Assembly: GCA_028286585.1 (NCBI GenBank) | Contig: JAQBRI010000007.1 | Span: 18,479-82,478, forward strand | Source of the DNA: Candidatus Kaiserbacteria bacterium | GTDB lineage: Bacteria; Patescibacteriota; Minisyncoccia; Phycocordibacterales; UBA2100 | Reading direction: 5' to 3' | Length of the DNA: 64,000 bases | Notes under the pieces: model-generated | What the model was told of the DNA's origin: nothing | Seen by the model: only the letters and a program-made list of their open reading frames with translations | Databases searched by the model: none | In this document: piece after piece, positions 10,748 to 56,661 of the stretch | Position numbering within the stretch: the stretch's first letter is position 1 | Layout of the letters: each line of letters starts with the position of its first letter | Translations under genes and position numbers: made by a program

Positions 10748-10794
10748 ACGAGTTACTATATCAGAAAGTGTTTACCGAGTGCTACAATATCTGC

Positions 10795-22732: not shown

Positions 22733-22854
22733 TTATACGCACTTTAGAATATAAAACCAACCTTTCGGATCGTAATCAAATCTGTGCATATCGTGTGGAT
22801 AGCTACCAGCCTGCCCTGCTTGATATATTTGATTTTTGAGATATAGTGCTTGGT
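22733..22854. promoter_or_regulatory. dnaA promoter/upstream region with DnaA box TGTGGATAG
   Basis: TGTGGATAG (reverse complement CTATCCACA) at about 22786-22794. Confidence 0.45.
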
Positions 22855-22995
22855 ATGAAGCGAACCTATCAACCAAAGAAACAAAAGCGAGCGAAGGCTC
22901 ACGGTTTTATAGCTCGATCTGCAACTGTTGGAGGTCGCGCAATGATCGCCCGACGTCGTGCAAAGGGCCGATCAAAACTCTCGGCGTCTGTATAA
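22855..22995 (+). CDS. rpmH: 50S ribosomal protein L34
   Basis: Hand translation [46 protein letters not shown]; not in the ORF track because under 60 aa. Confidence 0.85.
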
Positions 22996-23324
22996 TGACT
23001 CAGAAGTCACGCATGACACGTGCCGATATCGAGCGAGTACTCAAAAGCAAGACTCGCCGCGTGCGTACAGCGTTATTTTCTGCGATATTTTGCCCATCCG
23101 TTGATGGCGCCCCTACGCAATACGCGACTGTTGTATCAAAGAAAATAGCTCGTCATGCAGTTGACCGCAATCGTATTAAACGCCGAATGCGGGCAGCATT
23201 ACAACACGTTTCTCCCCCAGTCCACTCCTATTTTATTGTTCTATATCCCCTAAAGACAGTGGCTACGGTACCGCATGATGTACTAATGAACGAAGTCCAG
23301 TCATTTTTACAGACTCTCTCGTGA
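22994..23324 (+). CDS. rnpA: ribonuclease P protein component
   Basis: [29 protein letters not shown]...; overlaps rpmH stop (ATGA); classic rpmH-rnpA-yidC-jag order. Confidence 0.8.
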
Positions 23325-23341
23325 TATAGTATAAAATATAT

Positions 23342-24070
23342 ATGATTGCATCCATTTTTCACCTAGTAATATACGCGCCGCTCTATAATGCGCTCGTATA
23401 CCTCGTTTCCCTCGTTCCAAACCATGATATAGGAATTGCTATAGTAATTCTTACTATTATTGTGCGAATCATTCTGTTTCCTCTTTCGCGTAAAGCAATC
23501 GAGACACAAATTGCAATGAAGCGTATCACGCCAGAAGTTGCAAAACTTCGTGAATTGCACAAAGAAGACAAGACGGCAGAAACTAAGGCTATTCTCGAGC
23601 TCTATCGAGAAAATAATGTGCACCCATTTGCTAGTTTTGGCATCGTATTATTGCAGCTCCCAATACTTCTTGGACTCTATTTTGTGTTTGCACGTGCGGG
23701 ATTTCCCGTCATAAATACTGATTTTCTCTATTCGTTTGTAGCAGTTCCAAAAATGGTAAACATGGAGTTTTTAGGAATTTGGAATATGGCAAATAGTCAC
23801 AATATCTTCCTCGCGGTCACTGCAGGATTAACCCAGTTTGCATATACCCGACTCTCGATGGGTCCACGCGGCGTAAAGACAGCAACAGAAGCATCGCTTT
23901 CTGACGAAATGGCAAAAAGCTTTGATCTTCAGGCCCGTTTTGTCCTTCCTCTTATCATTGCTGTTGCAGGATATACACTAGTGTCCGCCGCGGCCTTGTA
24001 TTACACAGCAAGCAATATCTGTATGATCATACAGGAACTTCTTTCTGGGCGTCGCTTTACCAATGACTAG
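23342..24070 (+). CDS. yidC: membrane protein insertase YidC (short, monoderm-type)
   Basis: YidC/Oxa1 core helices (ILTIIVRIILFPL, PEVAKLRELHKED...), 242 aa. Confidence 0.8.
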   Translation: MIASIFHLVIYAPLYNALVYLVSLVPNHDIGIAIVILTIIVRIILFPLSRKAIETQIAMKRITPEVAKLRELHKEDKTAETKAILELYRENNVHPFASFGIVLLQLPILLGLYFVFARAGFPVINTDFLYSFVAVPKMVNMEFLGIWNMANSHNIFLAVTAGLTQFAYTRLSMGPRGVKTATEASLSDEMAKSFDLQARFVLPLIIAVAGYTLVSAAALYYTASNICMIIQELLSGRRFTND

Positions 24071-24090
24071 CGGACAGGTATAGTGAGTCG

Positions 24091-24567
24091 ATGAATGGAG
24101 ATGTAAAAGCAATTATTCTCAATATTTTCTCTAATATTGGCCACGAGGAACTTCCTGTTGAGGAAACTACCGTTGCAGGACAGCATATATTTTCTATACA
24201 AATCCCCGAAGCTGATCTTGCTTTGTTTGCAAACAATCCAGATGTCATTAATGCGCTCGACCACCTCGTCAAAAAGATAGTTGAAAAAAATACTGTTGCA
24301 TCCCCTACCGCACCAGGCAATGAAGACAGATTTTCATTTCTCGTCGATATTGGAGGCAAACGAATTGCACAGATAAAGGATTTAGAGTCACGCGCAATGA
24401 TGATGGCTGATCGCGCACGCTCGTTTCAATATGACGTCGAATTGGCACCCATGAGCGCCTATGAGCGTCTTATTGTGCATACAACACTACAAGATTCACC
24501 TAAGGTACGAACCGAGTCTCAGGGAGAAGGTTTTAACCGCCGTGTAGTTATCAAATACGTCGCTTAA
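24091..24567 (+). CDS. jag: Jag/KhpB RNA-binding protein (KH plus R3H)
   Basis: C-terminal R3H motif ERLIVHTTLQDSPKVRTESQGEGFNRRVVI; synteny after yidC. Confidence 0.75.
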   Translation: MNGDVKAIILNIFSNIGHEELPVEETTVAGQHIFSIQIPEADLALFANNPDVINALDHLVKKIVEKNTVASPTAPGNEDRFSFLVDIGGKRIAQIKDLESRAMMMADRARSFQYDVELAPMSAYERLIVHTTLQDSPKVRTESQGEGFNRRVVIKYVA

Positions 24568-24586
24568 CAACACTGTTTGGATGTTA

Positions 24587-25045
24587 TTAAGGGCCAACAG
24601 TCGCGGTTTTAACTGTATTCAGTGTCTTCAAAATATCAAGGTTTAGAAGATTGGGATTGATCTGAAAAAGTATCAAATACACGCCAAATAGAATCAAAAG
24701 ACCTATTATTGAATCCGCGAACATTTTTTTTGCTACATCTTTCTTGCTCCACATGTCGGCACTTCCCATATACAGGTACCCTGCCCAGGTGATTCGGCAT
24801 ACTGCCGCAAAGGCACCGGCCGAAAGTATGATCCGAAACATTGCATTCAAATATTGTGTGAGTCCTTGCGCATCTATAGCACTATTTATGGCCGGAGAAT
24901 TTTTATAATCTGCCAGCGGTACAAATTTACTAGGTGTTTCTGAAGTTGAAGGTGTTGCTTGCGCGTGTGCAGTGTAATTCACCCCGGTAAAACTTACCAA
25001 AAGCACAACGAGGCAGATTTTGATTGATGTATATATAAGTTTCAT
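24587..25045 (-). CDS. VirB2/TrbC-like pilin candidate (signal peptide plus two hydrophobic helices)
   Basis: Signal peptide ending AHAQA, then two hydrophobic segments separated by a short Lys-rich loop; last gene of the T4SS-like block. Confidence 0.35.
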   Translation of the reverse strand: MKLIYTSIKICLVVLLVSFTGVNYTAHAQATPSTSETPSKFVPLADYKNSPAINSAIDAQGLTQYLNAMFRIILSAGAFAAVCRITWAGYLYMGSADMWSKKDVAKKMFADSIIGLLILFGVYLILFQINPNLLNLDILKTLNTVKTATVGP

Positions 25046-25049
25046 ATCT

Positions 25050-26297
25050 CTATTGTGTCACACGTAATGCCCATAATGATTGATCGGTTCTGTTTCTAAA
25101 TACAATAAAATTGCCGGTTGGATCCATTTGCGGATTTTCCACATCAAAGGCAATACCATCCCCTACCGGATCGTAGATTCGTGTTGTGGTCGCCGAATCA
25201 ACACGCCACCACTCATCACTGGTATGAACAAGGCCTTGGTACCAGTCTGTTATATATGTTTTGTCTGTGATGCTTTTTGGTACGGCGCAGTAAGCGACGG
25301 GCTCGATACTAGACATCCATACACACTTATCCGCAATGGTGGATAGTGGAACCAAAAGACCTGTGCTGCTGGTTGCGAAGACAAGGTTTACGAGTCCACT
25401 TGCCGAACTACTATACAAAAACTCCTTTCCAGAAGTACGAGGAAGTATCATAAGTCCTGAAATCGCCCGCATATAGGGGTTTAATACTCCTGTCGATGTT
25501 ACCTGGTAGCTGTATCCCGGGATATTGTCAGCCGGACTCTGGGTAAGAAAGATTCTGCCGTCAGTAAGTATACTTGGCACCCAGCTCTTGAGAGGAAGCG
25601 ATGTAATAAGAACTGGCTTTGCATCATTCCAGCCCTGTGAATACAAGCTTGCTCCACCTGTTGGGTTTGCAGCGGTGTATATATATGTTTTTGTCTTTGC
25701 ATTTAATGCAAACTGAAGTGCATTTGGTGCGGTATATGCCCCACTGAGCGATAGATGTGCACTTGTTGTGGCGTTAGATGCAGTCGGAGCCACCGTATGG
25801 ATTGTACCGAGGAATGTTGTGATGTTTCCATTTGTATCAAGAGAGCGCTCAACCACGCTTCCATCTTGTGCGACATATGCTTCGTATATTTCAGGAAATA
25901 ATGTATCCGTAACACGCACGGTTGTTTGGGATGCTAGGTCAGCAGCGAAAATATTTCCATTGGCTCTGGGAATATATTCAAGCGTTGAAGAAGAAAAGCC
26001 ATATCCTGCGATAGGCTGTGCATCCACATGCCATATTCTTGGAATAGTTTTTGCAGATGGTGCAATACCGATTGGAGTCGAGGTCCCCTGATTTGCAGCA
26101 CTTCCCCCGGTGCTTGGTGTGCCAAAAGAATTATATTGCGTATTGGTAGTGCTGTTTCCGCGAAGTTGGTCGATTTTTTGAATCGATGTCTCTTTTGTTT
26201 TGAGATAGACATACCACCCAGTCATTCCGCCGAGAATCGTGACGATAAGTGCTAATACTATGAGTCTGAGAGGTTTTATAAAGGAAGAAGTTTCCAT
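25050..26297 (-). CDS. N-terminally TM-anchored extracellular protein, unknown function
   Basis: TM anchor LRLIVLALIVTILGG, Ser/Thr/Gly-rich extracellular part; in T4SS-like operon. Confidence 0.5.
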   Translation of the reverse strand: METSSFIKPLRLIVLALIVTILGGMTGWYVYLKTKETSIQKIDQLRGNSTTNTQYNSFGTPSTGGSAANQGTSTPIGIAPSAKTIPRIWHVDAQPIAGYGFSSSTLEYIPRANGNIFAADLASQTTVRVTDTLFPEIYEAYVAQDGSVVERSLDTNGNITTFLGTIHTVAPTASNATTSAHLSLSGAYTAPNALQFALNAKTKTYIYTAANPTGGASLYSQGWNDAKPVLITSLPLKSWVPSILTDGRIFLTQSPADNIPGYSYQVTSTGVLNPYMRAISGLMILPRTSGKEFLYSSSASGLVNLVFATSSTGLLVPLSTIADKCVWMSSIEPVAYCAVPKSITDKTYITDWYQGLVHTSDEWWRVDSATTTRIYDPVGDGIAFDVENPQMDPTGNFIVFRNRTDQSLWALRVTQ

Positions 26298-26300
26298 AGG

Positions 26301-27443
26301 TTATTTTGGAGTTGCATGAAATGGATCTGCAGCAGTTTGTGTTGGCGTATTTATTGTCGTTGTTTTGTTAAATACCACACTCCACAACTGTTCTGCATCC
26401 ATCAAAAAATCCTGGGAGTGCGTAACGGAAAGCGATATGTTTGCAGCTCCATTTGAATTTGCAGCGTTAATGGTCAGTTTACTTGGATTGCTCGTATCAA
26501 GTGGTACCGGTATGCCATTAATATCCCAACTATATATCAACCTGGGATCATTTGGATTTGATACTGCCGCAAAGTAAGGCACGGCACGGAATGTTGATTC
26601 AATGTCATTAATGGGAGTGTTTGCGAGAAGTGCGCTGGAATACATTGTTCCATATCGAGGATTATTTACGTACAGTTCTACAAGCGGATCATTAACAGGA
26701 ACATTTATATGTGCTGCACCAGAAATTGTGTTGTCTGAAGAGTGAACAACCACATCAACAGAATACGAAGAAGTTAATATGGGAGCTCCTACGGTAAGAA
26801 TATTTTTTCCAAGTCCCGATAATGAGCCCTTTACTATACCGTTCACGCTCCACGTAAAAATTAGTTTGTCATTTGCTATTCGAGCTCCTCGACTGTCGAC
26901 AAGGTATGGAATTGTTTGCACTTTAAAACCCGAACCGTGCGACGGAAGCGCGCGCCCCTTATAAAAGGGCGGAATATATGAGTTACTGTCGAGCAACAAA
27001 TCTACAACTGTAGGAGTTATAACAACTTGCGCACTTTTATTGCCGCTCGTAGTGTCGGCTGTTGCTCGAACTGTAAGAGATGATCCAGCATTTTGTGCCT
27101 GCGTCGTAAATTGCGTATCACCAATCGAACTCTCGATTTGCTTTCCATTTACCGTCCACGTGATTAAGCTTTGCGAAATGTCGGTGGATGCACTAGTTAC
27201 AGTTGCTGTAATAGTGTCACGCGGGCCAGGATTGTGAGGCGTGAATGTAATATACATGTCGGAGCCGCTGCCTCCCCCGCCAAGACTTTGTGCATGAGTA
27301 CGTGTTGCAGCACAAAACATAATAAGTAAAAAGAGACTGCTATATACAGATATGTGTGTACGAAGCGACACCATACTATTCTCCATGTAGTGAACTACTG
27401 TTAAGGCTGCTTGCAACCGGAGCAGTGTCTTCGCCTGGCGCAT
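26301..27443 (-). CDS. secreted protein with signal peptide, unknown function
   Basis: Signal peptide LFLLIMFCAATRTHAQS; beta-rich, Thr/Ser-rich. Confidence 0.5.
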   Translation of the reverse strand: MRQAKTLLRLQAALTVVHYMENSMVSLRTHISVYSSLFLLIMFCAATRTHAQSLGGGGSGSDMYITFTPHNPGPRDTITATVTSASTDISQSLITWTVNGKQIESSIGDTQFTTQAQNAGSSLTVRATADTTSGNKSAQVVITPTVVDLLLDSNSYIPPFYKGRALPSHGSGFKVQTIPYLVDSRGARIANDKLIFTWSVNGIVKGSLSGLGKNILTVGAPILTSSYSVDVVVHSSDNTISGAAHINVPVNDPLVELYVNNPRYGTMYSSALLANTPINDIESTFRAVPYFAAVSNPNDPRLIYSWDINGIPVPLDTSNPSKLTINAANSNGAANISLSVTHSQDFLMDAEQLWSVVFNKTTTINTPTQTAADPFHATPK

Positions 27444-29310
27444 AGGGAGCGTGTGCTGTCGTTGCGTTATTTGTCGCCGTATTTACACGGTCGCTCTCTT
27501 GTGAGACTGCAAGATCTTGTTTTGCTTTCTTGATAGCCAAAATTTGCGAAGGGTCCGAGGTAATGATTTGGTCTTCGGTATAACTTGCAATAACTTTGAG
27601 TGCGACATGTTTGAGTCCAGCAAAGAAGATCCCCTCCCCTACATCACTTTCGAGCAAAAGATATTTTTCCTCATCAGAAAGCTTGAACGTTTGCTGCACA
27701 AGATCAACGGATGTTGGTGACTGGCGAAGCAGTAATTGAATGGATGAGTTAGTGATCATCGGCACGCCATAAGGTGAATTGAGAAAGTCGGACACGTCCT
27801 GCGTTATAGTGGACACACCGAGGTAATATTTACGACCGCGTTTAATAATGCCAAACAAAAACGAAGCAGTGTCTTCACTGCGCATCATCCACCAGGCCTC
27901 ATCGATAATAAGAAGTCGTTTACGCAATTCTTTGCGCACTGTATTCCAAATATGGTGCGTAATGATGTACATGGCAACAGGCTTGAGGTCGTCTTCCATG
28001 TCCCGCACGCTAAATACGACAAGACGCTTGTTCATGTCAACGTTTGTTGGCCTGTTCATAAAGCCAGACCAGGTACCTTTTGTATATTTTGAGAGTCGTG
28101 CGACGAGCGAGTCACTCCCTTCCATGCCCGAAAGCACCAATTCAAAGTCCGAAAGTAGCGGTGGTTCAACCTGTGCAAAATTTGCATCGGCCGTAATGTC
28201 CTTCAGGGCATACGTTTCAGTAATAGCTCGATCAATTACAGCATCTTCTTCTGGAGTGAGTCCGCCAAGCATGATGCGGAACAATCCGACGAGCGTAATG
28301 ATGTTGTTGCGAAGAATATCAGAAGGATTTTCGTCTTCTCGCGGAATTGGAAGATCAAATGGATTGATGTGGTGTTCTGACGAAAGAGAGATATTAAAAT
28401 ATCGGCCGCCGACTGTTTCTGCAAGGTATTCGTATTCCCGCTCAGGGTCGATCACAATAACCTCGGTATCAAACATGAGACTTCGCAAAATCTCTAATTT
28501 TGTTGTGTAGGATTTACCAGCACCCGATTTTGCAAATGTTACCGAGTTATAATTTTCGAGCGAAAAACGATCAAACAGAATGAGTGATGAGTTATGGCGG
28601 TTGATTCCGTACAAAATACCGCGATCCGAAGTAAGGTCAAATGAAATAAATGGAAAAATAGAAGAAAGTGGCGCGGAATTCAGCTTTGTGTGGACTGCGA
28701 GCTCGTCAGTTCCAATTGGTAGCACCGAACGAAATCCCTGTTCCTGCTGAAAGAGCGCCGGTCGAATATAGACAAGTCTCGATTCGAGAATTCCGCGTAC
28801 CTCAGTCTCGATTTTATCCAATTCTTCGTGGGTTTTTCCATACACAGTGAGATAAATTCCCACATCAAACATACGTTCCTGCGCTTGCTGCAAGGAATCA
28901 CGAAGCTGCTCGAGGTCACTATAGCCGGTATCAAGCATTGGGTCCCGCACCATTCCCTTTTCTTCGCGAGTAGCAATTTGTGACTGGACTTCGGCAACCT
29001 TTTTTTGAAACTTGCGAAGCATTTCATTGGTATCGAGCGGATGGATAAAGATAGAAATATCCAACACCTTGTCCATGTTGATAATCGGTGCAAACCAGCC
29101 AGTTGTAAGAAATCGAGGATATGAAATAACAAAAAATGTGCGCGCGATTTTTTCTCCAAGATCAAGTTCGCGTGAATCAACGCGGAGTGCGTGCGGTGCA
29201 ATAACATCCTGCAAATTTAATACTCCCGAGCGATAGATTTCATCAGGCAAGACCGGAAGAACCGACGGTGCCGGTTCTTTTGTTCCAGTTAAAAAATCAA
29301 AAAGTGCCAT
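27376..29310 (-). CDS. VirB4/TrbE/CagE-family T4SS ATPase, C-terminal ATPase portion
   Basis: Walker A FAKSGAGKSYTTK, Walker B LLIIDEAWWMM, conserved VirB4 C-terminal motifs. Confidence 0.8.
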   Translation of the reverse strand: MALFDFLTGTKEPAPSVLPVLPDEIYRSGVLNLQDVIAPHALRVDSRELDLGEKIARTFFVISYPRFLTTGWFAPIINMDKVLDISIFIHPLDTNEMLRKFQKKVAEVQSQIATREEKGMVRDPMLDTGYSDLEQLRDSLQQAQERMFDVGIYLTVYGKTHEELDKIETEVRGILESRLVYIRPALFQQEQGFRSVLPIGTDELAVHTKLNSAPLSSIFPFISFDLTSDRGILYGINRHNSSLILFDRFSLENYNSVTFAKSGAGKSYTTKLEILRSLMFDTEVIVIDPEREYEYLAETVGGRYFNISLSSEHHINPFDLPIPREDENPSDILRNNIITLVGLFRIMLGGLTPEEDAVIDRAITETYALKDITADANFAQVEPPLLSDFELVLSGMEGSDSLVARLSKYTKGTWSGFMNRPTNVDMNKRLVVFSVRDMEDDLKPVAMYIITHHIWNTVRKELRKRLLIIDEAWWMMRSEDTASFLFGIIKRGRKYYLGVSTITQDVSDFLNSPYGVPMITNSSIQLLLRQSPTSVDLVQQTFKLSDEEKYLLLESDVGEGIFFAGLKHVALKVIASYTEDQIITSDPSQILAIKKAKQDLAVSQESDRVNTATNNATTAHAPYAPGEDTAPVASSLNSSSLHGE

Positions 29311-29315
29311 AAGTA

Positions 29316-29969
29316 TTATTGTGAATCAAGCGGCATTGGTTTGCCTTCTTCGCCCGGATTAAATAGTTTGTATAACAATTCAATCGCCTCCTCGGTACCT
29401 AATTGTACAGTACGTACTCCCGTTCGAGTAAGTCCCTGCTGAACAATTGAGACACGCTGTTCAAGCTGCGACACTTGTTCTTCAAATGTTCGGCTTACTT
29501 CTGTTGCAGTCTGTTTTTTTCCAAAAGATAAGAATGATTTACCGCCTGAACCAATAGGCGCTGTCGGTGAATATGGAATGACTACAAAAAAGTTCTTTGT
29601 CATAATGCTTGCTGCTTCGGTAAAGCTTTTGATGAATTCAATGTATTCTCGGATTTGAGTGCGCATCAGGTCGTCGATTTGGTTTTTGTAGGCTACTTCG
29701 AGCGTTGCGATGTAGGGACGAATATCAAGCATACGAGACTCGATGAATATTTGTACCGAAAAATCAAGAGAGTTAAGAAAGTTTTGAAATTGAACAATGA
29801 AAGCCGTCTGCTCATCCTCGGATTTGAGTGCAAAGTTAATGGAAGACGCTAGCAGGATTGCACGCAGTGACGAGTCTTTGAGTACGACGACTCCATCACG
29901 TACCTCATTAATGGGCACAAAGTCTTGTGTTGAGGCGGATTTAACTTTTGTATTCATTGTTGAAGGCAT
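29316..29969 (-). CDS. VirB4-family N-terminal domain encoded as a separate ORF
   Basis: VPINEVRDGVVVLKDSSLRAILLASSINF... resembles the VirB4/TrbE N-terminal domain; separated from the ATPase ORF by 5 nt and a frame change. Confidence 0.5.
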   Translation of the reverse strand: MPSTMNTKVKSASTQDFVPINEVRDGVVVLKDSSLRAILLASSINFALKSEDEQTAFIVQFQNFLNSLDFSVQIFIESRMLDIRPYIATLEVAYKNQIDDLMRTQIREYIEFIKSFTEAASIMTKNFFVVIPYSPTAPIGSGGKSFLSFGKKQTATEVSRTFEEQVSQLEQRVSIVQQGLTRTGVRTVQLGTEEAIELLYKLFNPGEEGKPMPLDSQ

Positions 29970-29978
29970 AGGTAAAGA

Positions 29979-30494
29979 TTATTCGGCAACTTTTCGTGAA
30001 CCAGGCCCGATAGCATCGCGTGCAGTTCGAATCGCAAACACTCCCCCGCCCTGCACCCGATCATCATCGCTTGCAGCGCCCGAGGCAATACGTTCCTTGA
30101 TATCAAGCGACCATGCAAGATCGTGAATCTTACTTTCGGTAAGTTTGGGAACGTAGAGTGTCGGATCGTTCGAAAGCGTTCGCTCAAGCTCGTTTGGAGA
30201 TATTGGTTTTGTCGGGCGCGTATTACTCCACAAATACAGGCGTGGATGAATAAAATAGTAAAATACGCTTTCGAGCCAAACAATAAATGATCTGCCGTTT
30301 ACTTGAGCAAAAGCAAGTGCAGCCGCAAGTCCAACCATCCCTATTGCAAGCGGTATAGCCAAAAAAACAGGAAAGATACGATACAAAATATATGAAAGTC
30401 CGAGTCCTCCAGCCATCCATATAAATTGCCGAAATGTAAATGGACCAAAAATTTTGTCTTCCACTTCAATAAACTGTGGCACTTGAAACTGCAT
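29979..30494 (-). CDS. PrgI/VirB3-like small T4SS membrane protein
   Basis: EVEDKIFGPFTFRQFIWMAGGLG followed by two TM helices, position immediately upstream of VirB4. Confidence 0.5.
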   Translation of the reverse strand: MQFQVPQFIEVEDKIFGPFTFRQFIWMAGGLGLSYILYRIFPVFLAIPLAIGMVGLAAALAFAQVNGRSFIVWLESVFYYFIHPRLYLWSNTRPTKPISPNELERTLSNDPTLYVPKLTESKIHDLAWSLDIKERIASGAASDDDRVQGGGVFAIRTARDAIGPGSRKVAE

Positions 30495-30574
30495 GTCTAT
30501 AGTATAGCAGGCAGAAACAGTTACACATGTAAATGCATGTGTATTTTTTATATAACTGCAAATTATATAAGTAT

Positions 30575-31174
30575 TTAGACCGGCTGTTCGCGATACGGGT
30601 CTCCTACAACATCTTTTCGTTCGTGACTCGCAGTATTCGTGTAGTTGGGATGTGCATCACTTCGTACGGCTTGCGTTACCGGTGCTTCTGGAATCGGCGC
30701 AAGCGGTGCAGGTTTTACAAATGGCACAACAACTGGCTGTGGAGCGGTGGTTTGTATTGACAGCATGTCAGATGGAGCGTTTTTAGGGTTATCTGATGAG
30801 AGTGAGGACTCGAGTTCGGTGCGAATTGGCTCAAAAACAATGCGAGAAATGTCCGCGGCCAATAAAACTGCAGCCTCATGATCCATTTTGACCTCGCGTT
30901 CAATGTTTGCTGCGAGGTTTTCTGGCTTATCAAGCCCTAAAAGGGTCATCATTACCTCGTTTTCCAAAAGTTCCCACTGATCGAGATGCAGTTTGTGCGT
31001 CTTTGAAAGATCCCGTAGATGAGCCTCAATATCCGCCGATGTTATAGCATCTTGCACGACTTGGGGTAATGCAGCTATTCGGGCATCAAGTTCTTGTTGT
31101 AATGTGTCTTGTTCCATATGTTTAAGTTCCATCTTCCTTTGGAGGAGTATATCTTCGTCCAGAAGCTTGAGCAC
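30575..31174 (-). CDS. acidic cytoplasmic protein, unknown function (T4SS-like operon)
   Basis: Glu/Asp/Leu-rich helical N-half, Pro-rich C-terminus; no TM. Confidence 0.4.
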   Translation of the reverse strand: MLKLLDEDILLQRKMELKHMEQDTLQQELDARIAALPQVVQDAITSADIEAHLRDLSKTHKLHLDQWELLENEVMMTLLGLDKPENLAANIEREVKMDHEAAVLLAADISRIVFEPIRTELESSLSSDNPKNAPSDMLSIQTTAPQPVVVPFVKPAPLAPIPEAPVTQAVRSDAHPNYTNTASHERKDVVGDPYREQPV

Positions 31175-33671
31175 GTTCCTTCAATTTTTCTTCGTCTGTG
31201 CGTTGCTTCGAGAATTTACGAGTTGCGGACTTGATCATATCTTTTGTTTCAGTGTGATGAGTTCTCATTCTTTCACGCATTCTTTCCGTTATAGATCCTG
31301 TTGCAAGACCTGGATCATCCGGATTATTTGAAATCTTATCAACCTCCTCATTAATCAGATGATCACTTACCCTACTCTGCAAAGATTCCGCCTCCTTGAT
31401 TGCGTCGGTACGTACCGTCTCTCCCTTTTTGTCGTGTTCAGCAAGCTTCTTTCCAGAGTCATTGTATCTCGCCTTGAGTGAATCCATAGGTGCGCCAATA
31501 GTTGTATCCAGTTTTTGATGGAATGAGATAAGTGATTTTGTGGCAGACTCGATTTTTGCATCTTGCTGTTTAATCTGCTGTTGACGGGTGGCCTTAGCAG
31601 CTTCCATACGCATTGATGCAATCGATGCGGCCGCCTCATCTTTGTTGGCTTGAGCAAGGTTATAATCTTGCTCAGCACTTTTGCGCTCCGTATCGATCGC
31701 ATTGAGCGCAGTAGCTTTTTCGTTTGTAGCAATAACGACAGCATTCTTAAGATTATCAAACTGAGCACCCTCACCGGTTGAATCAGCAGCTGCTTTGCGC
31801 ATATTTTCAATATCCTGTGAAGCCCTTGTTCGCTCTGCCGCAATTGCGTCACGCTCCCTATCATGGTCAGCGGCCTTTGTATCCGCATACTCTTTCTTTT
31901 CGTCGTTGCTCATTTTTGCAACCTTAGAACGTTCATCTATATCCTTACCAGTACGTTGAACTTTGCCATAAAATCCATCTTTCTTGTCTTTACTAGTTTG
32001 CCCAGCCCCCTCACGTCCAAGTAGTTTCGCACCACTTTGGCCGAGTTTTGTATCCATAAAGTTATAACTTCTTTTAGATTTTGTATCTGCAGCTGCCTTG
32101 AGTTTCTCAAGTTCCGCAAGACGTTCGTTTTTTTGTTTGAATGCTGCAGAATTTTGATCAAGATTTGCCATTTGAAAGCGGAGACTTTTCTGTTCATTTT
32201 CATGAGCAACTTTTTCTTTGAGCGCGTTTCTACCCGCATAGTTTTGCAAACCTCTTGCAGCTAATCCGGATCCTCCGGCAAGACCAAATGCACCTGCAAC
32301 TCCAAGAGCCTTTCCTGCAAAGTCACCAATACCACTCATGGCACCACCACCGTTTGTTGCGAGAATGCGAGACATTTTAAAAGAAACTAAAAGAAGTCCT
32401 GTTACTAATAGGTATGTAAACAAGACTGTCCAAGGTTGTACGCCTGCAGCGGCGTCCGGCGGAGCTGCGGCTGGATTAATTAAGTTTCCCAGACTAAGCG
32501 TGTTTTGAGAGACACCCGACAAAAGTTTGAGCGATATAGCAAGCATTAACATCAAAATTGGTCCAAAAATAGCATTATTAATCAATGTTTTCCACCACAT
32601 GTCCCATCCAAAATGACTGTTTGAAAGTGCTGGGTGCAAATAGGTGGCAAAAGCAATTGCCGAAGTTAGCATTACCAGAATTAACATGAGAAATCGCAAA
32701 AAAAGCAGGTAGCAGCCATAAAAAAGGACCACTGCAATACCGAATAATAATATTCCCGCAAAAAGTCCATAAATAAATCTAAAACCAAGATCAGCTGCCC
32801 CCCCAGGGTTTGAAGTTGAGCTTGCAGCTTTATTGATAACCCCTGCTGAATCAGTCCATATACTCGTGATACCGAGGGGTTTTAAAAATGATGCAGCGAT
32901 ATCTTTTTGATCACTCGAAACTCCTGCATCATAAAATTTAACTGCGGTTAAATTTGATGCATCAATAATAAGCTTTGCAAACAGCAGACTAAAATTAATC
33001 AATACAGCAATAACAATGACTCGTGCGATCATCTTCTTGTCACCAAATTCTTTTAGTCCCAAAATAATGCTTATCGCTATAAATGCGAACAGGCCAATGA
33101 TAACAATGTTTGAAAGATCACGGAAAACAGTCCAAATGGTAGGTATTAATCCTTTTAATCCGAACAAATCCATACCTTTTCCAAAGTCTGTAACTGCTAA
33201 ACTTAGTAACGCATCAAAAAATGTCCCGGCCAGCCGCAGACAGAGGGCCCCAAGCATTATAAAAAGTGAAGAAATGAAAGTTATTGTAGGGCTCAAGACA
33301 CACTCATTAAAATCAAAATCGACACCAGTTACCCCAACGCTACAGGTAGAAGGAGAGGCAGGGGTTTTGGTCGTATTACCGGCCGTATCGGTGCGCGTCT
33401 TAGTAAGACTATTGTCTTCAGAAAGGAGATTTTGACTTTGGTCAAACCACAAAACACTAGCGTTTGTGGTGCCACAACCAAACTGCGCATTTTGTGGAGC
33501 CTGTGCAAAAAAAGCAGTGCTACCGGCACTGCCTCTTGCGATAACTGTGCCGGCCTCACAACTGTCAGAAACGTTTAAAGCGTGGAGTGTGAATGGAGAA
33601 AATAGAGAAAAAATTACAACAAGAGCAAGAAAAACAAACTGGTATTTTATTTGGAATAAAATAGTACTCAT
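31122..33671 (-). CDS. VirB6/TrbL-like polytopic membrane protein with long Lys/Glu-rich coiled-coil C-terminal extension
   Basis: Signal/TM N-terminus, about 6-7 TM helices in residues about 170-450, then about 380 aa charged coiled coil (KEKVAHENEQKSLRF...). Confidence 0.45.
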   Translation of the reverse strand: MSTILFQIKYQFVFLALVVIFSLFSPFTLHALNVSDSCEAGTVIARGSAGSTAFFAQAPQNAQFGCGTTNASVLWFDQSQNLLSEDNSLTKTRTDTAGNTTKTPASPSTCSVGVTGVDFDFNECVLSPTITFISSLFIMLGALCLRLAGTFFDALLSLAVTDFGKGMDLFGLKGLIPTIWTVFRDLSNIVIIGLFAFIAISIILGLKEFGDKKMIARVIVIAVLINFSLLFAKLIIDASNLTAVKFYDAGVSSDQKDIAASFLKPLGITSIWTDSAGVINKAASSTSNPGGAADLGFRFIYGLFAGILLFGIAVVLFYGCYLLFLRFLMLILVMLTSAIAFATYLHPALSNSHFGWDMWWKTLINNAIFGPILMLMLAISLKLLSGVSQNTLSLGNLINPAAAPPDAAAGVQPWTVLFTYLLVTGLLLVSFKMSRILATNGGGAMSGIGDFAGKALGVAGAFGLAGGSGLAARGLQNYAGRNALKEKVAHENEQKSLRFQMANLDQNSAAFKQKNERLAELEKLKAAADTKSKRSYNFMDTKLGQSGAKLLGREGAGQTSKDKKDGFYGKVQRTGKDIDERSKVAKMSNDEKKEYADTKAADHDRERDAIAAERTRASQDIENMRKAAADSTGEGAQFDNLKNAVVIATNEKATALNAIDTERKSAEQDYNLAQANKDEAAASIASMRMEAAKATRQQQIKQQDAKIESATKSLISFHQKLDTTIGAPMDSLKARYNDSGKKLAEHDKKGETVRTDAIKEAESLQSRVSDHLINEEVDKISNNPDDPGLATGSITERMRERMRTHHTETKDMIKSATRKFSKQRTDEEKLKERAQASGRRYTPPKEDGT

Positions 33672-33672
33672 A

Positions 33673-35322
33673 TTATTTCCACGCGTTTTGCCACATGGTT
33701 ATTGTTGCAGGGTTGTTGACGTTGCACCAGCCTGAATTTGGGTCATTTGGGTTTGCAGGATTTGGCGCCCCGTCGCCCCATGTCTGCTGAAGTGTTCCAG
33801 GATTTCCGGGTGTGCCAAGGAATACCGCCAGTTGATTTACAATTCCCTGTTTGGTTGGAGTGAGTGCGTCGATATCTGTCTGATTATGAAAGGCGTTTTG
33901 GGCAACGAGCTGGTTAAATTGTGCTATTGCCTGCGCTTGTGCAGTATTTGACGAAGTGTTTGCAACGCTCGCGATGAGTCTGTCGATATTTGTAAGAGCA
34001 GACTGCGATTTGGACAATCCTGTCGTTACTGCTGTTGCGTATGGTTGTATTTGTGCCGCAATGACAGCTTGAGATGCTGTAGTTGTTGTTGCAATATGCA
34101 GTGTTGTTCCTCCTGATGTGGTGCAAGTCGCACCTGCTGCCGTGTAATTTGGTGCGCCAGAGCAGGCAGCAGCAATAATGCCGGTCCAGCAAGCATTTTC
34201 GGTACCGCGTACCTGTCCTATCGCCTGAGTCAACAGATCGGCGATTCCAGCGAGTACGTTATAATATGCGGCTTCTACCTGACGGGCAGTGCTTAGAGTT
34301 TGAAGTGCGATATTTGTAACGGTACTAATTACACCTTGCGTCGCGTTTTTAGAAACTTGGTCAAAGTATGATGGTTGGCCGCCACTGTTCGAACCAAGTG
34401 CCGAGAGCCCGCCACTGTTTTGAAGTATTTGATTACCCATACCGGTAAAGAGTGCGCTGACCATCTGTCCAATATCGTTGGCGCTTTCGGTTTGTCTGAA
34501 CCCCGATGTAAGTGCCTGTTGTGCTATTGCATTTACAACAGAAGCTGGAGTAACTGTGCGTGTTATTCCGTCAGCGCCAACTTCAGTTTGTGGATAGGTG
34601 CCTTGTCCCCAACTGAGCTGAGTCATCATATTGTTGTATGCATTATTTGTATCCTCCTGCAGGTGTTCTTGTGCTATTTCATATGCACCAAGCGGATAAC
34701 AGGCCGGGTTACTTGTGAATGTTCCAAGAGCATCAAACAATGGAGTTGTTGCTGTCACGGGGTTTGGACACCGAAGATCAGCATATGGATTATCCGTTTG
34801 AGCAATCCACGATTGCGCAAGTGACCGGGTAACAGCGCTGCTGAATGCTGGCGCCATAGTGGACTGAGCAGTTTGAAGAGATTTGACAGCGGTAGTGTTC
34901 TGAACAGTGACCCCTTCTTGTTGGTAGTTTTGTGAAAACATCGGGGTCCCGTCACGACCTGTAAGATAACTACGTGAAGTTTGGTTTGTTGTGTCTGCAA
35001 TCGCCTTTTCTCGAAGTCTATCAACGAGAGGTCGGAGCTGACACGCTACATAGACCAAATAACCTGTGTTTAGGGTCACTGCTGCGTCACTTACCGGCAC
35101 ATATACAGATGAACGTGCAGAAAAAGCACCTACACTTTGTCCATATGCCGCAGTTTGATTACAGCTCAGGATACCATCATTGGAAACTGTTGGCGGAGGA
35201 GCGGATGTTGCCGCAGCATCACTCGTTGCTATCTGCTGGCTTTCTGTTGTTACTTGAGCCAATACGATAACTGGAAGCAGCGCCGCGACGATAATGGTTG
35301 AAATGTAGGTTGAGTAGTTCAT
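33673..35322 (-). CDS. secreted Thr/Ala/Gln-rich protein, unknown function
   Basis: Signal/TM anchor from Met at 35322 (MNYSTYISTIIVAALLPVIVLAQ). Confidence 0.5.
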   Translation of the reverse strand: MNYSTYISTIIVAALLPVIVLAQVTTESQQIATSDAAATSAPPPTVSNDGILSCNQTAAYGQSVGAFSARSSVYVPVSDAAVTLNTGYLVYVACQLRPLVDRLREKAIADTTNQTSRSYLTGRDGTPMFSQNYQQEGVTVQNTTAVKSLQTAQSTMAPAFSSAVTRSLAQSWIAQTDNPYADLRCPNPVTATTPLFDALGTFTSNPACYPLGAYEIAQEHLQEDTNNAYNNMMTQLSWGQGTYPQTEVGADGITRTVTPASVVNAIAQQALTSGFRQTESANDIGQMVSALFTGMGNQILQNSGGLSALGSNSGGQPSYFDQVSKNATQGVISTVTNIALQTLSTARQVEAAYYNVLAGIADLLTQAIGQVRGTENACWTGIIAAACSGAPNYTAAGATCTTSGGTTLHIATTTTASQAVIAAQIQPYATAVTTGLSKSQSALTNIDRLIASVANTSSNTAQAQAIAQFNQLVAQNAFHNQTDIDALTPTKQGIVNQLAVFLGTPGNPGTLQQTWGDGAPNPANPNDPNSGWCNVNNPATITMWQNAWK

Positions 35323-35323
35323 T

Positions 35324-36097
35324 TTATTTTTTGGCCGAAGCGTTCTTTCTCGCAATGTACTGTCCAATCGCATCAAAAGAAGAAACTACATCGTTTTGAG
35401 CTTGTGTATACACTTGCAGTGCTGCTGCAGAACCTATCGGATCTTGTGCTTGAGCAATCATCAAATTAAGTGTAGCCGCAAATTCTCGCATGGCATTTAC
35501 GATACCCACATGTTCCGAAGTTGCATCGGTCGGTACTGTAATTGTTATTGTGTTGGATGCCGCAAGAGAATAGTTGGCCGATGCATCTTTGAGTTGTTGT
35601 AAATACGTAGGATCTTGGGTTTGTGTATACAAAGAAAATAGTCCGACTTCGGATTGCGTATTTGCAAGAAGCGGCTTAAGAGCTGCTTGAAGCGCCGAAC
35701 GATACACAAGCATGCGCGCATACGAAGTGTCCGTGTCTGTTTTTATATTACTGTACTGCGCGATTTGATATGTGACAGTCGGTTTGAGGCTGCTTCCTAA
35801 GTTCGCAGCAACCGATTGAGCTGTCGAAGTTGAATATGAGCCTGACTGAATCAAGGCCGAATATGATGCGATAAGCTGATTCATCACCTGTACTCCTACT
35901 GGAGTGGTGCTCGCCTGATTAAATGCAGCGTTTTGGGCATTTATTGTAGTGCCGTTTGTTTGATTTCCTGCGTTTACAATGACGCTACTTACCGGGATGC
36001 GGAAAACACTCCAGACGAGAACGGCGACTAATACGATAACAGCTCCTATCGCTGTTGTGCGTATGGAAAATCCTTGATTTTTTGTAGCAGTATCCAC
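35324..36097 (-). CDS. N-terminally anchored extracellular protein, unknown function
   Basis: TM anchor TAIGAVIVLVAVLVWSVF; Ala/Ser/Gln-rich. Confidence 0.5.
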   Translation of the reverse strand: MDTATKNQGFSIRTTAIGAVIVLVAVLVWSVFRIPVSSVIVNAGNQTNGTTINAQNAAFNQASTTPVGVQVMNQLIASYSALIQSGSYSTSTAQSVAANLGSSLKPTVTYQIAQYSNIKTDTDTSYARMLVYRSALQAALKPLLANTQSEVGLFSLYTQTQDPTYLQQLKDASANYSLAASNTITITVPTDATSEHVGIVNAMREFAATLNLMIAQAQDPIGSAAALQVYTQAQNDVVSSFDAIGQYIARKNASAKK

Positions 36098-36171
36098 GCT
36101 AATAGTATAGCACCAGAAAAAAGAATTTTGATACAGTAATTCGCACGTTTTAGTCTTTTTTGTAGAGCTAT

Positions 36172-37086
36172 TTACAATCCCCCGCTGCCGCCCGAGAAAG
36201 TAAACACACTTCCAGGATCAGTTTGTGAAAACGACACTTCATTTAATGAAAATACGAGCGCAATGCCTACAAACGCATGGGTAAATGTATCGGTTGTTGC
36301 GTTATATGTTTTTAGTGCGGCAATATAATCAGCGTCTCTTTGAGACTGCGCCTGTGCCGTTTTTATAAGAGATGTGCCGACAGTCTTGTAGCTTTGTGCA
36401 AGTGCAGATCCGGAAGGTTTAATCGTCTTTGGAGCTGTATCTACCGAGGCGATGTTATTGCCAAGTTCAATCATATCTCTACCGATTTTTTCGACAGCAG
36501 CTTCCTTGGCGGAGTCTTGTCTGTCATTAACTGCACCCGTAATAATCTGTACTACTGATTGATGTGTCGCCTCATATCCTTGTATCATTGATCCAATTTC
36601 GTTCCCATATTGATATAAGGCATCCTGTGTCCCCGATCGTGATGGTGCACTCGAGGTACTCACTAGACCAGATGGAATGTAGCTCCATACATTTATGTCG
36701 CCTACCGAAGAACTGGTAGTCTGTGTTTTTGGCTTTGTTCCTGCCGGCAATGATATTGATTGCAGTAGAGCGTCAAGATTGTCGGTCGTTACTGCTGTGT
36801 AACTTCCCTGAAGTGCGCTACCAGTATTGTTTCCAGTCGAGTTGGTGGTGTAAGGAAGCGTTTGAGTTGCGTATGCTTGTGAAGGCGTAGTTTGAGGTGT
36901 TGGAACCGGATTTGTGGCTGCCGAAATCTGGCCATTAGTACTTGGTGAATTTGGATTCCATGCCTGTTCACTGACATACGCGGGATACGAAGCACGATTT
37001 TGCACGAGGATTGCTCCAAGTATGAGTAGGGCACCAGCTATTATGGATCCTACAATTAATGGATGTTCACGCATTCGTTCGATCAT
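36172..37086 (-). CDS. N-terminally anchored extracellular protein, unknown function (first gene of the block)
   Basis: TM anchor LIVGSIIAGALLILGAILV. Confidence 0.5.
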   Translation of the reverse strand: MIERMREHPLIVGSIIAGALLILGAILVQNRASYPAYVSEQAWNPNSPSTNGQISAATNPVPTPQTTPSQAYATQTLPYTTNSTGNNTGSALQGSYTAVTTDNLDALLQSISLPAGTKPKTQTTSSSVGDINVWSYIPSGLVSTSSAPSRSGTQDALYQYGNEIGSMIQGYEATHQSVVQIITGAVNDRQDSAKEAAVEKIGRDMIELGNNIASVDTAPKTIKPSGSALAQSYKTVGTSLIKTAQAQSQRDADYIAALKTYNATTDTFTHAFVGIALVFSLNEVSFSQTDPGSVFTFSGGSGGL

Positions 37087-37183: not shown

Positions 37184-37507
37184 ATGTATATGAAGAACTT
37201 TTTACCGGCCACCATTCTTGTGGCGAGTTTCTTTTTGCCCCTCGTATCTTTTGCGTCACCATTTGGAGGATCAATTGGTACGATCGTACCTTGTTATAAC
37301 CAGGCGATTTATGCAAGCGTGGGTCCTCCAGTTGGCGGGCAGTTTATATGGACACCAGCGACACAGACCTATCAATTTGGCCCTCCGCGCCATTCCGGAC
37401 AGTGGCTCCTTGGTCTTTATGGTGTTCCCTATTATTGTATTGTTTCAATCGAACCGATTGTTGTGTGGCCGGGACTTAATATCACCATGATGGGTTCCTC
37501 TCAGTAA
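37184..37507 (+). CDS. small secreted protein, unknown function
   Basis: Signal peptide from internal Met (MYMKNFLPATILVASFFLPLVSFA); divergent from the T4SS-like block. Confidence 0.35.
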   Translation: MYMKNFLPATILVASFFLPLVSFASPFGGSIGTIVPCYNQAIYASVGPPVGGQFIWTPATQTYQFGPPRHSGQWLLGLYGVPYYCIVSIEPIVVWPGLNITMMGSSQ

Positions 37508-38360: not shown

Positions 38361-40247
38361 TTAATCGAGGTAAATGTCATCGAGCAAACCGCGCTTGGGA
38401 GGAGCAGCTACTAGTCGATTATCAATGTCGTTTATAAATTCACTACGCAGCGCAAATTCCCGTGAACCATACTTCATTCGTTGTTTTGCATGAGTGAGAT
38501 GAAGTGTTTTGCGTGCGCGAGTGATAGCAACATAAAAGAGTCTGCGTTCTTCTTCTGGGTCCCGTGTCCCTTCTCGCATTGATGGAAACAATCCTTGTTC
38601 GAGGCCTGTCACAAAGACCACATCAAATTCAAGACCCTTTGAAGCGTGAATTGTCATAAGTGCCACTTCTGCTCTTTTTTCAGTAAGAGCATCCTGATCA
38701 CTTTCGAGAGCAGCATCTTCCATGAGCCGCTCGATACCCTCGGGCGGAGCAAAGTCATCGTACCGAACCGCAAGGTTTACCAGTTCACGAACGTTTTCAA
38801 GTCGCTCCTTACCCTCTTCTGTTTGGCCAAGCGAAGATTCCACTCCGCTTGTTTCAAGTGCAAATCGTACTGCTTCTGATGCGGGTAGTGTTACACATGC
38901 CTGGTGAATATGTTTGAGAATATTTCGGAGTGTATCAATCTTGACCTTTGCTGCACCGGTCAGTGACGCTTCCCCATTTTCAAATACTTTATCAATTGTT
39001 ACTTTTCCAATTCCGCGCGGTACTGCCGATGCTGCGCGTGCAAAATCTGCACGACTCTCGATATTCATTGCTGCGCGAATAAAAGATAATACATCTTTGA
39101 CCTCTTTGCGCTCATAAAACTTGGTTCCCAAAACTCGATATGGCACACCAAATCCAAGACACGCCTCTTCGAGTACGCGCGACTGAAAGTTTTCGCGGTA
39201 CAGAATTGCAATTTCGTCAGCACGAACACCTTCTTTGATCTTTTTTTGTATCGTCTGAGCTATATACCACGCCTCATCAACCTCATTTCCGCCAGCATAA
39301 ATATGAATAGGATCTCCTGTTTGATTCTCGGTAAAGAGGTTTTTTGCGTGCCGCTTGGTATTGCGAGCAATCACGCCATTTGCTGCCGCAATAATAGTTC
39401 GCGTCGAGCGATAATTTTGTTCCAGTAATATTACATTCGCCCCCGGAAAAGCATGTTCGAAATTAAGAAGATGTTCCATTTCTGCACCGCGCCAGCTATA
39501 AATAGATTGGTCGGTATCGCCCACAACACAGACATTTTTTCGCTCGCCTGCAAGCAGTCGAACAATTTCATATTGCGTACGATTGGTATCCTGATATTCA
39601 TCAACCGTAATGTACTGCCAGCGATTTTGTAAAAGAGAACGAACACGCTCGCTTTCTCTGAGCAAAAGTAATGCCCGAACAATAAGGTCATCAAAATCCA
39701 GCGCCCCTTCTCGTCTTAGTTCGGCATCATAGATTTCCCATACGGCGGCAATTGCACGTTCGCGTGGCATGGTTGCTCGTTCGGCATAATCACGCATGTT
39801 TGACGCCTCACCCTTTTCTTTTGAAATTGCCGAGAGCATCGAGCGCGGAGTCCATTGTCCAAGATCGAGTCGATCAAGGGCCCGTTTTATTGATTTGGCG
39901 CTGTCATCACGATCCCATAAGACAAACGCTCGCGGCAGGCTCGCTTCTTGGTGAAACTCTCGGAGTATCCGCACGCAGAGCGAGTGAAAAGTACATACCA
40001 AGGGCGTGCCGTGCAAATTTGGCGGCAAGAGTGCCAGAACTCGTTCCCGCATCTCGCCTGCCGCTTTATTGGTAAAGGTAACGGCAAGGATACTGCTCGG
40101 ACGGACCCCTTTTTCTATCATATAAGCGATTCGGTGGGTAATAGTTTTTGTTTTACCTGCTCCGGCTCCAGCCACAATAAGGAGTGGGCCTTCGATCAGT
40201 AAGACTGCTTCTTTTTGTTTGTCGTTGAGTGAGTTTGGAAGTGCCAT
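38361..40247 (-). CDS. ATP-dependent DNA helicase, UvrD/PcrA family
   Basis: SF1 motifs AGAGAGKTKTITHR, TFHSLC, VDEYQDTN, VGDTDQSIYSWRGA. Confidence 0.85.
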   Translation of the reverse strand: MALPNSLNDKQKEAVLLIEGPLLIVAGAGAGKTKTITHRIAYMIEKGVRPSSILAVTFTNKAAGEMRERVLALLPPNLHGTPLVCTFHSLCVRILREFHQEASLPRAFVLWDRDDSAKSIKRALDRLDLGQWTPRSMLSAISKEKGEASNMRDYAERATMPRERAIAAVWEIYDAELRREGALDFDDLIVRALLLLRESERVRSLLQNRWQYITVDEYQDTNRTQYEIVRLLAGERKNVCVVGDTDQSIYSWRGAEMEHLLNFEHAFPGANVILLEQNYRSTRTIIAAANGVIARNTKRHAKNLFTENQTGDPIHIYAGGNEVDEAWYIAQTIQKKIKEGVRADEIAILYRENFQSRVLEEACLGFGVPYRVLGTKFYERKEVKDVLSFIRAAMNIESRADFARAASAVPRGIGKVTIDKVFENGEASLTGAAKVKIDTLRNILKHIHQACVTLPASEAVRFALETSGVESSLGQTEEGKERLENVRELVNLAVRYDDFAPPEGIERLMEDAALESDQDALTEKRAEVALMTIHASKGLEFDVVFVTGLEQGLFPSMREGTRDPEEERRLFYVAITRARKTLHLTHAKQRMKYGSREFALRSEFINDIDNRLVAAPPKRGLLDDIYLD

Positions 40248-54146: not shown

Positions 54147-54158
54147 CTGCGGGTTTTC

Positions 54159-54935: not shown

Positions 54936-54999
54936 AATATAGCCATATATGCAAGTATATTAGTCGTATAAAGATTGAAATAAAAACTATGACTATGTA

Positions 55000-56655: not shown

Positions 56656-56661
56656 GCAACA

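Follow-up and report, generated by a model that had tools for sequence, protein, structure and literature searches.

The window analysed here is a 64,000 nt stretch of a Candidatus Kaiserbacteria genome (assembly GCA_028286585.1, contig JAQBRI010000007.1, nt 18,479–82,478), and all coordinates below refer to positions within it. Its minus strand carries an 11-gene operon (nt 24587–37086) that very probably specifies the Paceibacteria form of the Patescibacteria-type chromosomal type IV secretion system (T4SS), a machine derived from an MPF_FATA conjugation apparatus, located beside the replication origin and vertically inherited. As judged from the sequences of its products, the gene set appears to be that of a monoderm (MPF_FATA-like) T4SS. 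The same system was described across 2,407 Patescibacteria assemblies by Quinonero-Coronel et al. (2025), who found a Patescibacteria-specific VirB4 clade nested in MPF_FATA, genes for TrsD, PrgI/VirB3, VirB6 and VirB2-like pilins near virB4, and a near absence of relaxases; in Paceibacteria the T4SS was placed near dnaA, dnaN, rnpA, ksgA and rpmH, and the proposed function was non-conjugative, possibly import (PMC12102498). The architecture, the proximity to the origin and the conclusion have thus been published already (PMC12102498; PMC10633639; review PMC12857230), and the present locus illustrates the system well without being a discovery.

The genes are numbered from g11, transcribed first, to g1, transcribed last, and were delimited from a program-made list of open reading frames (ORFs) and their translations. 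They are closely packed, with intergenic gaps of 1–9 nt except for 74 nt between g11 and g10 and 80 nt between g7 and g6, and because most gaps are so short the layout is that of a single operon. An earlier reading made from the sequence alone had counted 12 ORFs; 11 genes were found here, the other minus-strand ORFs in the list being nested alternative frames. A scan for promoters and terminators gave counts no higher than the shuffled expectation and was uninformative. A hairpin with a perfect 9-bp stem (TACACATGT-AAAT-GCATGTGTA) is present at nt 30522–30543, inside the 80-nt gap between g7 and g6.

The product of g4 (nt 27376–29310, 644 aa) is a VirB4 ATPase of the monoderm CD1110/TrsE type. 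It matches Pfam family PF19044 (E 5.7e-24) and the NCBIfam model of CD1110-family VirB4 proteins, NF045971 (E 1.4e-111), scoring 374 bits where the curated cutoff is 325 and spanning profile positions 180–733 of 752. The VirB4 of Thermoanaerobacter, a monoderm (PDB 4AG5), was matched with E 1.3e-40, and the diderm TrwK with E 3e-8 (TrwK residues 300–735 aligned to g4 residues 127–551). Other models returned were the VirB4 of Mycoplasma integrated conjugative elements (ICE; E 2.9e-73), VirB4_CagE (E 4e-32) and PRK13853 (E 4.3e-6), and by model scores g4 appears closest to VirB4s of the Firmicutes/Actinobacteria/Tenericutes type and not to those of the diderm classes. The protein is collinear with TrsE of the staphylococcal plasmid pGO1 over residues 35–573 (BLASTP, E 2e-34), and its translation shows intact Walker A (SGAGKSYTTK) and Walker B (LLIIDEAWW) motifs. 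The earlier assignment as a VirB4/TrbE ATPase with a Walker A motif is therefore borne out by PF19044, NF045971, 4AG5 and the intact motifs. The protein has at least 8,000 homologues; identity is 86–98% for the best 120 listed, and the named VirB4 homologues among the matches listed are from Kaiserbacteria, Paceibacterota or Patescibacteria.

Immediately upstream lies g5 (nt 29316–29969, 217 aa), a TrsD-like protein that appears to correspond to the N-terminal part of a canonical VirB4. In NCBIfam searches it aligned to the N-termini of full-length VirB4 models (NF045975, positions 98–233, E 4.7e-12; TIGR00929, positions 3–181, E 4.5e-7; NF045971, positions 2–112, E 1.1e-6). The match to the TrsD model, NF041427, was of similar significance (E 1.1e-6) but at 28.6 bits is far under the whole-protein cutoff of 200, and direct comparison with pGO1 TrsD was not significant (BLASTP, E 1.3; hhalign, E 0.015). 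Neither the single sequence nor a profile of g5 matched any PDB sequence. Alignment of the g5 and g4 profiles with hhalign also gave no match, which was the wrong test because g5 represents the VirB4 part missing from g4. Taken together, the model coordinates indicate that g5 and g4 make up a canonical VirB4 in two pieces, and TrsD has been reported as the commonest T4SS partner of VirB4 in Patescibacteria (PMC12102498).

VirB4-related sequence distributed over two adjacent ORFs in different frames could also mean that the locus is decaying, with a frameshifted VirB4 and a non-functional system. This can hardly be credited. In all 78 related loci that hold both genes, g5 and g4 are separate ORFs; their relative frames are spread over the three possibilities (36, 21 and 21 loci), with spacers of about 1–98 nt. 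Both proteins are well conserved (median identity 62% for g5 and 77% for g4), the Walker motifs are intact, and the same TrsD/TrsE arrangement occurs in the functional pGO1 system. Since the pair is separate in every locus, in all three frames, highly conserved and arranged as in pGO1, the split is an ancient, fixed two-gene arrangement and not a frameshift, and these conservation data refute the pseudogene reading. The earlier description of a VirB4 split across two ORFs was correct as to the two ORFs, but they are a conserved pair and not a single gene broken up.

Three further genes specify membrane components of the T4SS. The small membrane protein encoded by g6 (nt 29979–30494, 171 aa) is PrgI/VirB3-like, matching PF12666 (PrgI) with E 1e-10 and 42.4 bits against a cutoff of 27, and it is present in 76 of 80 related loci, always directly upstream of g5-g4, in agreement with the position previously proposed for it. 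The large polytopic membrane protein g8 (nt 31122–33671, 849 aa) has a signal-like hydrophobic segment at residues 12–30 and further segments at 130–148, 188–206, 218–236, 307–325, 363–381 and 411–429, followed by a hydrophilic, charged C-terminal tail of roughly 400 aa. Twelve of 60 orthologues match the TrbL/VirB6 family PF04610 (best E 6.5e-7), and with this topology g8 appears to be an extended VirB6-like protein, as had been suggested. The last gene of the operon, g1 (nt 24587–25045, 152 aa), encodes a signal peptide and two hydrophobic helices. Among its orthologues, 49 of 53 match the T4SS pilin family PF18895 (best E 9.5e-11) and nine match TrbC, and through them g1 is a VirB2-type T4SS pilin candidate, which sustains the earlier proposal. 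No paralogue of g1 was found elsewhere in the window, where it is the sole pilin copy, and comparison of its profile with pGO1 TrsB/CagC (hhalign) was not significant.

The operon lies between two groups of chromosomal genes. On one side are jag, yidC, rnpA, rpmH, dnaA and dnaN, at distances from the block of 20 bp (jag), 0.5 kb (yidC) and 1.9 kb (dnaA); on the other are ksgA, pcrA/uvrD, a LysM-M23 endopeptidase gene and comM/yifB. Its GC content (0.42–0.47) equals that of the flanks. The locus was compared with those of 80 other species-representative genomes, all of Patescibacteria, the named ones belonging to Kaiser-, Nomura-, Campbell-, Taylor-, Adler-, Wolfe- and Zambryskiibacteria. The order uvrD-ksgA-[g11..g1]-jag-yidC-rnpA-dnaA-dnaN was found in all 80 loci as far as the fetched contigs reach, with g1 and g2 swapped in the more distant ones. 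Profile hidden Markov models recovered each of the 11 genes in 54–78 of the 80 loci (for example, g11 in 54, g2 in 68, g7 in 69, g6 in 76 and g3 in 77–78), so that the whole set appears to be conserved class-wide. Median identities to the window proteins (nt 21371–29310 compared with the 80 loci) were 77% for VirB4, 62% for g5, 53% for DnaA, 50% for UvrD, 47% for KsgA, 40% for YidC and 38% for DnaN. These values suggest that VirB4 and g5 are under strong purifying selection, and that VirB4 is more constrained than the replication initiator DnaA.

Because the same gene order is present in 80 other Paceibacteria genomes, the block belongs to the core genome and is inherited vertically, not as an ICE. 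An integrated conjugative element or its remnant, which could still move DNA, would be suggested by the membership of VirB4 in the CD1110 family of conjugative-transposon ATPases and by the descent of the gene set from monoderm conjugation systems (PMC12102498). It is nevertheless a very improbable explanation. Every non-overlapping ORF of at least 150 aa in the window was scanned, and none specifies a VirD4-type coupling protein, a relaxase or a flanking integrase. The sole tyrosine recombinase found is of the XerD type and is 13 kb from the block, and a search for att-like direct repeats at the borders gave only short chance matches. With the pGO1 coupling protein TrsK and relaxases as queries, 79 of the 80 loci gave no match at distances of up to 10 kb from virB4; TrsK gave one marginal match (E 5.6e-4) in the remaining locus, and the relaxases matched nothing in the window or in any of the 80 loci. 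In 80 species the block has the same insertion context, with jag and ksgA as its neighbours, and sequence divergence tracks that of the housekeeping genes. The ICE reading is thus largely refuted by the missing relaxase, coupling protein and integrase, the shared GC content and the fixed context. The sequence-only reading had already placed the block in the core chromosome near yidC/jag and dnaA, and not in a plasmid or ICE, and had seen no VirD4, relaxase or integrase in the block or its flanks; both statements hold, the former by the flanking genes, the GC content and the synteny in 80 genomes, and no VirD4 and relaxase pair flanks the block in the scanned ORFs (at least 150 aa) of the window.

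The remaining operon genes (g2, g3, g7, g9, g10 and g11) code for accessory proteins, which had been described as six signal-peptide or membrane-anchored proteins without recognisable domains. A hydrophobic N-terminal segment was found in five of them and is lacking in g7, and fold-level similarities were detected for g2 and g3, so that the description stands only in part. No block protein matched Pfam or NCBIfam models of an outer-membrane core complex (VirB7/9/10). The membrane-anchored protein g2 (nt 25050–26297, 415 aa) has a transmembrane (TM) segment at residues 12–30 and a predicted TolB-like beta-propeller ectodomain; with the profile of its orthologues, the PDB search gave matches along the propeller blades to 12 distinct TolB sequences (E 1.6e-4 to 4.4e-3). 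The product of g3 (nt 26301–27374, 357 aa) has a signal-like N-terminus (MVSLRTHISVYSSLFLLIMFCAATRTHAQ) and is predicted to be exported by the Sec pathway; its true start is probably the ATG at nt 27374, directly after the VirB4 stop codon. Its orthologue profile returned the immunoglobulin (Ig) domains of phage T4 Hoc (PDB 3shs, E 9.4e-5) followed by weaker Ig domains, consistent with Ig-like beta-sandwich repeats. The cytoplasmic protein g7 (nt 30575 to about 31132, about 180–185 aa, the start probably being Met15 or Met20 of the listed 199-aa ORF) has no TM segment and no family match in Pfam or NCBIfam, but its N-terminal domain, which is helical, and a DPYRE motif at its C-terminus are conserved.

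Directly upstream of the VirB6-like gene, g9 (nt 33673–35322, 549 aa) codes for a secreted, Cys-containing protein. Its AlphaFold model, built from an alignment of 110 sequences, is elongated and alpha-helical, with helices of up to 68 residues (predicted local distance difference test (pLDDT) 84, predicted template modelling score 0.70). A Foldseek search of the PDB found no relative of this model, only non-specific helical matches. Conservation is very strong in an N-terminal motif (consensus GGVYVPVNDAAVTLNTGYLVYKECVLR), yet residues 18–79 were modelled at a pLDDT below 50. The family is large (3,548 representatives of 50%-identity clusters at E ≤1e-3, 2,246 at ≤1e-10), and the members listed have no Pfam domain on record, except for PF00041 in two longer ones. 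The proteins g9 and g10 are 100% identical to JWO50_409 and JWO50_410, respectively, of a Candidatus Kaiserbacteria metagenome-assembled genome. The g9 protein is a candidate pilus-tip, adhesin or translocator component, and from the position of its gene beside that of VirB6 a VirB5-like role is plausible.

The first two genes of the operon specify bitopic proteins. That of g11 (nt 36172–37086, 304 aa) has an N-terminal TM segment (residues 10–28) and an extracytoplasmic C-terminal helical domain, without a family match in Pfam or NCBIfam, and that of g10 (nt 35324–36097, 257 aa) ends in a four-helix bundle. The two are paralogues, their profiles aligning over about 140 C-terminal residues (hhalign, 97.7% probability, E 1.8e-12). 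In the AlphaFold2 model of g10 (mb96273f8f7d5, alignment of 16 sequences) residues 110–257 have a pLDDT above 90 and are all helical. The best PDB matches to this model were chemoreceptor-type four-helix-bundle sensor domains, which were non-significant (E ≥0.05), and neither VirB8 nor VirB5 was among the top 50. An identity of g10/g11 as VirB8/PrgL/TraM (NTF2-like) proteins was considered, since they are bitopic, and rejected, the C-terminal domain of g10 being a four-helix bundle and not an NTF2 fold. The suggestion that these accessory proteins could be VirB8 analogues is accordingly dropped.

Two genes outside the operon may be connected with it. Divergent from the operon start, orfX (nt 37190–37507, plus strand, about 105 aa) encodes a small protein with a signal-like N-terminus and three Cys residues, which is predicted to be secreted and has no Pfam family. 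It is 50–69% identical in 17 close loci and weaker in five more (22 in total), always between g11 and ksgA, a position that would tie it to the T4SS. Further away, 3.5 kb upstream of the operon, is a gene for a LysM-LysM-M23 peptidoglycan endopeptidase (nt 40640–41788, plus strand; PF01551, E 4.6e-33; LysM, E 2.6e-25), also found upstream of uvrD in all six loci with flanks reaching that far. VirB1-like proteins containing LysM/M23 domains have been associated with virB4 in Paceibacteria (PMC12102498), and this enzyme is a possible VirB1-type wall-remodelling helper, but it may be an ordinary housekeeping protein.

Among known systems, the gene set corresponds to the Patescibacteria-clade T4SS, including that of Southlakia epibionticum (SEML1_0005–0019; Wang et al. 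2023, PMC10633639), in having a monoderm VirB4, a TrsD-like protein, PrgI/VirB3, VirB6 and a VirB2-like pilin, and in being chromosomal with no relaxase or coupling protein nearby. Southlakia also carries an exported Ig-like protein near VirB4 (SEML1_0005), but it has a six-gene pilin array where a single pilin gene is present here, and its NTF2/VirB8-like SEML1_0012 has no counterpart in the present operon, which also contains no lysozyme or peptidase gene. The set formed by the TolB-like propeller, g9, g10/g11 and g7 is not described in those two papers (PMC12102498, PMC10633639). The prototype of MPF_FATA, the Trs system of the Staphylococcus aureus plasmids pGO1/pSK41, shares the order TrsC (VirB3-like)-TrsD-TrsE (VirB4), with similar sizes (TrsD/TrsE of 227/672 aa, g5/g4 of 217/644 aa), as well as a small VirB2/CagC-like protein and a TrbL-family protein. 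It differs in residing on a mobile plasmid and in specifying the TrsK coupling protein, a relaxase, the TrsG CHAP hydrolase, a topoisomerase and a single-stranded DNA-binding protein, none of which occurs here. With Clostridioides difficile CTn2, the source of the CD1110 VirB4, and the Prg/Pcf system of Enterococcus pCF10, the operon has in common a VirB4 above the CD1110 cutoff, the PrgI family and the lack of an outer-membrane core complex. Those elements, however, are mobile, carry a relaxase, a coupling protein, a VirB1-type hydrolase, VirB8-like proteins and surface adhesins, and are without a pilin.

In the mechanism we propose, VirB4/TrsD-like hexamers would dock on PrgI (VirB3) and VirB6 in the single membrane, and VirB4 would draw pilin out of the membrane and drive its polymerisation into a pilus or channel that crosses the wall. 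The g2 propeller and g3 Ig proteins would scaffold the wall-spanning part, and the faster-evolving g9–g11 would be at the host-facing end. The machine would then serve a host-dependent (episymbiotic) lifestyle through host contact and coupling-protein-independent exchange of macromolecules, and not conjugation, which is unlikely because there is no coupling protein or relaxase; a non-conjugative role, which had been put forward from the sequence, is also the reading favoured in the literature and agrees with the lack of both genes in the window. These steps are drawn from established T4SS knowledge, while the component set and its inheritance come from the present analysis. As to cargo and direction, we would give a slight preference to uptake, with DNA, nucleotides or other macromolecules from the host as possible cargo, over the export of effectors. 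Reviews describe the role as 'completely unknown' and mention two proposals, the delivery of effectors and the import of macromolecules such as DNA (PMC12857230, PMC11665869).

One specific form of import is a dedicated DNA-uptake machine, like Helicobacter ComB or archaeal Ced, that would take up host or environmental DNA as a source of nucleotides independently of ComEC. We regard this as possible but tentative. ComB-type importers retain VirB2, VirB3, VirB4 and VirB6, the same set that is found here without a coupling protein, VirB11 or relaxase. Nucleotide synthesis is missing in Patescibacteria. For epibiotic growth, the Saccharibacterial (Southlakia) counterpart of the system is essential, whereas comEC can be dispensed with (PMC10633639; PMC12857230). 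Two genes just upstream of the operon, pcrA/uvrD (nt 38361–40247) and comM/yifB (nt 41883–43415), could be taken to favour this reading, but they are ordinary housekeeping genes and ksgA stands between them and the operon. VirB4 shows a weak, partial match to CedB (E 1e-8), limited to the P-loop region of the shared ATPase core, and among the products of the block no DNA-binding or nuclease component could be recognised. The H. pylori ComB and archaeal Ced systems are likewise T4SS-derived and without coupling protein or relaxase, import being only hypothetical here, and ComB retains a VirB2-like subunit. ComB is, however, a diderm system with VirB7-10 that passes DNA to ComEC, and the absence of VirB7-10 here is as expected for a monoderm; Ced has unrelated CedA proteins, and the ATPase core alone is in common with the block.

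The alternative direction, export of effectors by injection or release into the host cell, would require a coupling protein whose gene is elsewhere, or else a Sec-dependent route that bypasses coupling proteins, of the kind used by Bordetella Ptl, and is rather unlikely. Bordetella Ptl and Brucella VirB work without a VirD4-type protein (PMC12857230), but both are MPF_T systems of diderms, have a complete VirB1-11 set and carry protein cargo that is known.

A more far-reaching version of the import model, which we think quite unlikely as it stands, is that the accessory set (g2, g3, g7, g9, g10/g11 and orfX) forms a lineage-specific, envelope-spanning host-contact module that replaces VirB8, VirB5 and VirB1, and makes of a former conjugation motor a coupling-protein-independent pilus conduit importing host macromolecules. 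If true, such a role would account for VirB4 being more conserved than DnaA.

Several points weigh against the identification of the operon as a Patescibacteria-type T4SS with a non-conjugative role. The window copy of g8 has no Pfam match, its VirB6 assignment coming by way of orthologues, and that of g1 scores below threshold with both PF18895 (E 1.7e-3) and TrbC (E 3.3e-3). The block yielded no protein identifiable as VirB8-like or VirB1-like, and it is predicted location and fold class that suggest the roles of g2, g3 and g9–g11. A coupling protein or relaxase could be encoded outside the 64-kb window, VirD4-like genes far from virB4 having been reported for most Patescibacteria genomes (PMC12102498). 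A literature search found no later functional or structural work on the system beyond the papers cited.

The rest of the window consists of housekeeping genes, including ruvAB, polA, pilB, PBP1, PNPase and the XerD-type recombinase. Near the origin, rpmH (L34; nt 22855–22995, plus strand) lies between dnaA and rnpA, and the 162-aa ORF given for rnpA in the program-made list begins too far upstream. A PilB-type type IV pilus ATPase (nt 10708–12489, plus strand; TIGR02538, E 4e-136) is encoded between polA and ruvB, 12 kb from the T4SS, with no further pilus genes recognised beside it. A MurL-like UDP-MurNAc-L-Ala-L-Glu epimerase (nt 6516–7829, minus strand; NF041275, E 3.9e-69, below cutoff) and a Mur ligase (nt 1245–2531, plus strand) hint at a MurD2/MurL route to D-Glu in peptidoglycan synthesis. 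Four paralogous winged-helix regulators of the TrmB/MarR type (nt 52047–52802, 52803–53570, 54159–54935 and 56662–57435) form a cluster (nt 52047–57435) interleaved with ORFs without assigned function. For a 288-aa ORF (nt 47306–48172, minus strand), a match to LpxC deacetylase (E 1.1e-8) is confined to the last ~50 positions of the model, which is odd for a monoderm without lipopolysaccharide and may reflect a divergent deacetylase or a chance partial match. ORFs without a Pfam match are present at nt 4116–5831 (minus strand, 571 aa), nt 43892–45022 (minus strand, 376 aa) and nt 55076–55789 (plus strand, 237 aa), the first two having no NCBIfam match either.

To the published surveys this locus adds a full inventory of the conserved 11-gene Paceibacteria set, evidence that the division of VirB4 into two genes is fixed, the ranking of VirB4 above DnaA in conservation, and fold-level notes on accessory proteins that were left unannotated, among them that g10/g11 are not VirB8-like and that g9 is without a specific fold match. 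It is no new kind of system, but the window provides a clean reference example for Paceibacteria, and the gene list, the very strong constraint on VirB4/TrsD and the fold-level descriptions could guide experiments. What the Patescibacterial T4SS carries is a recognised question, and few other machines have been shown to be essential to the epibiotic lifestyle of these ultra-small bacteria (PMC11665869, PMC12857230).

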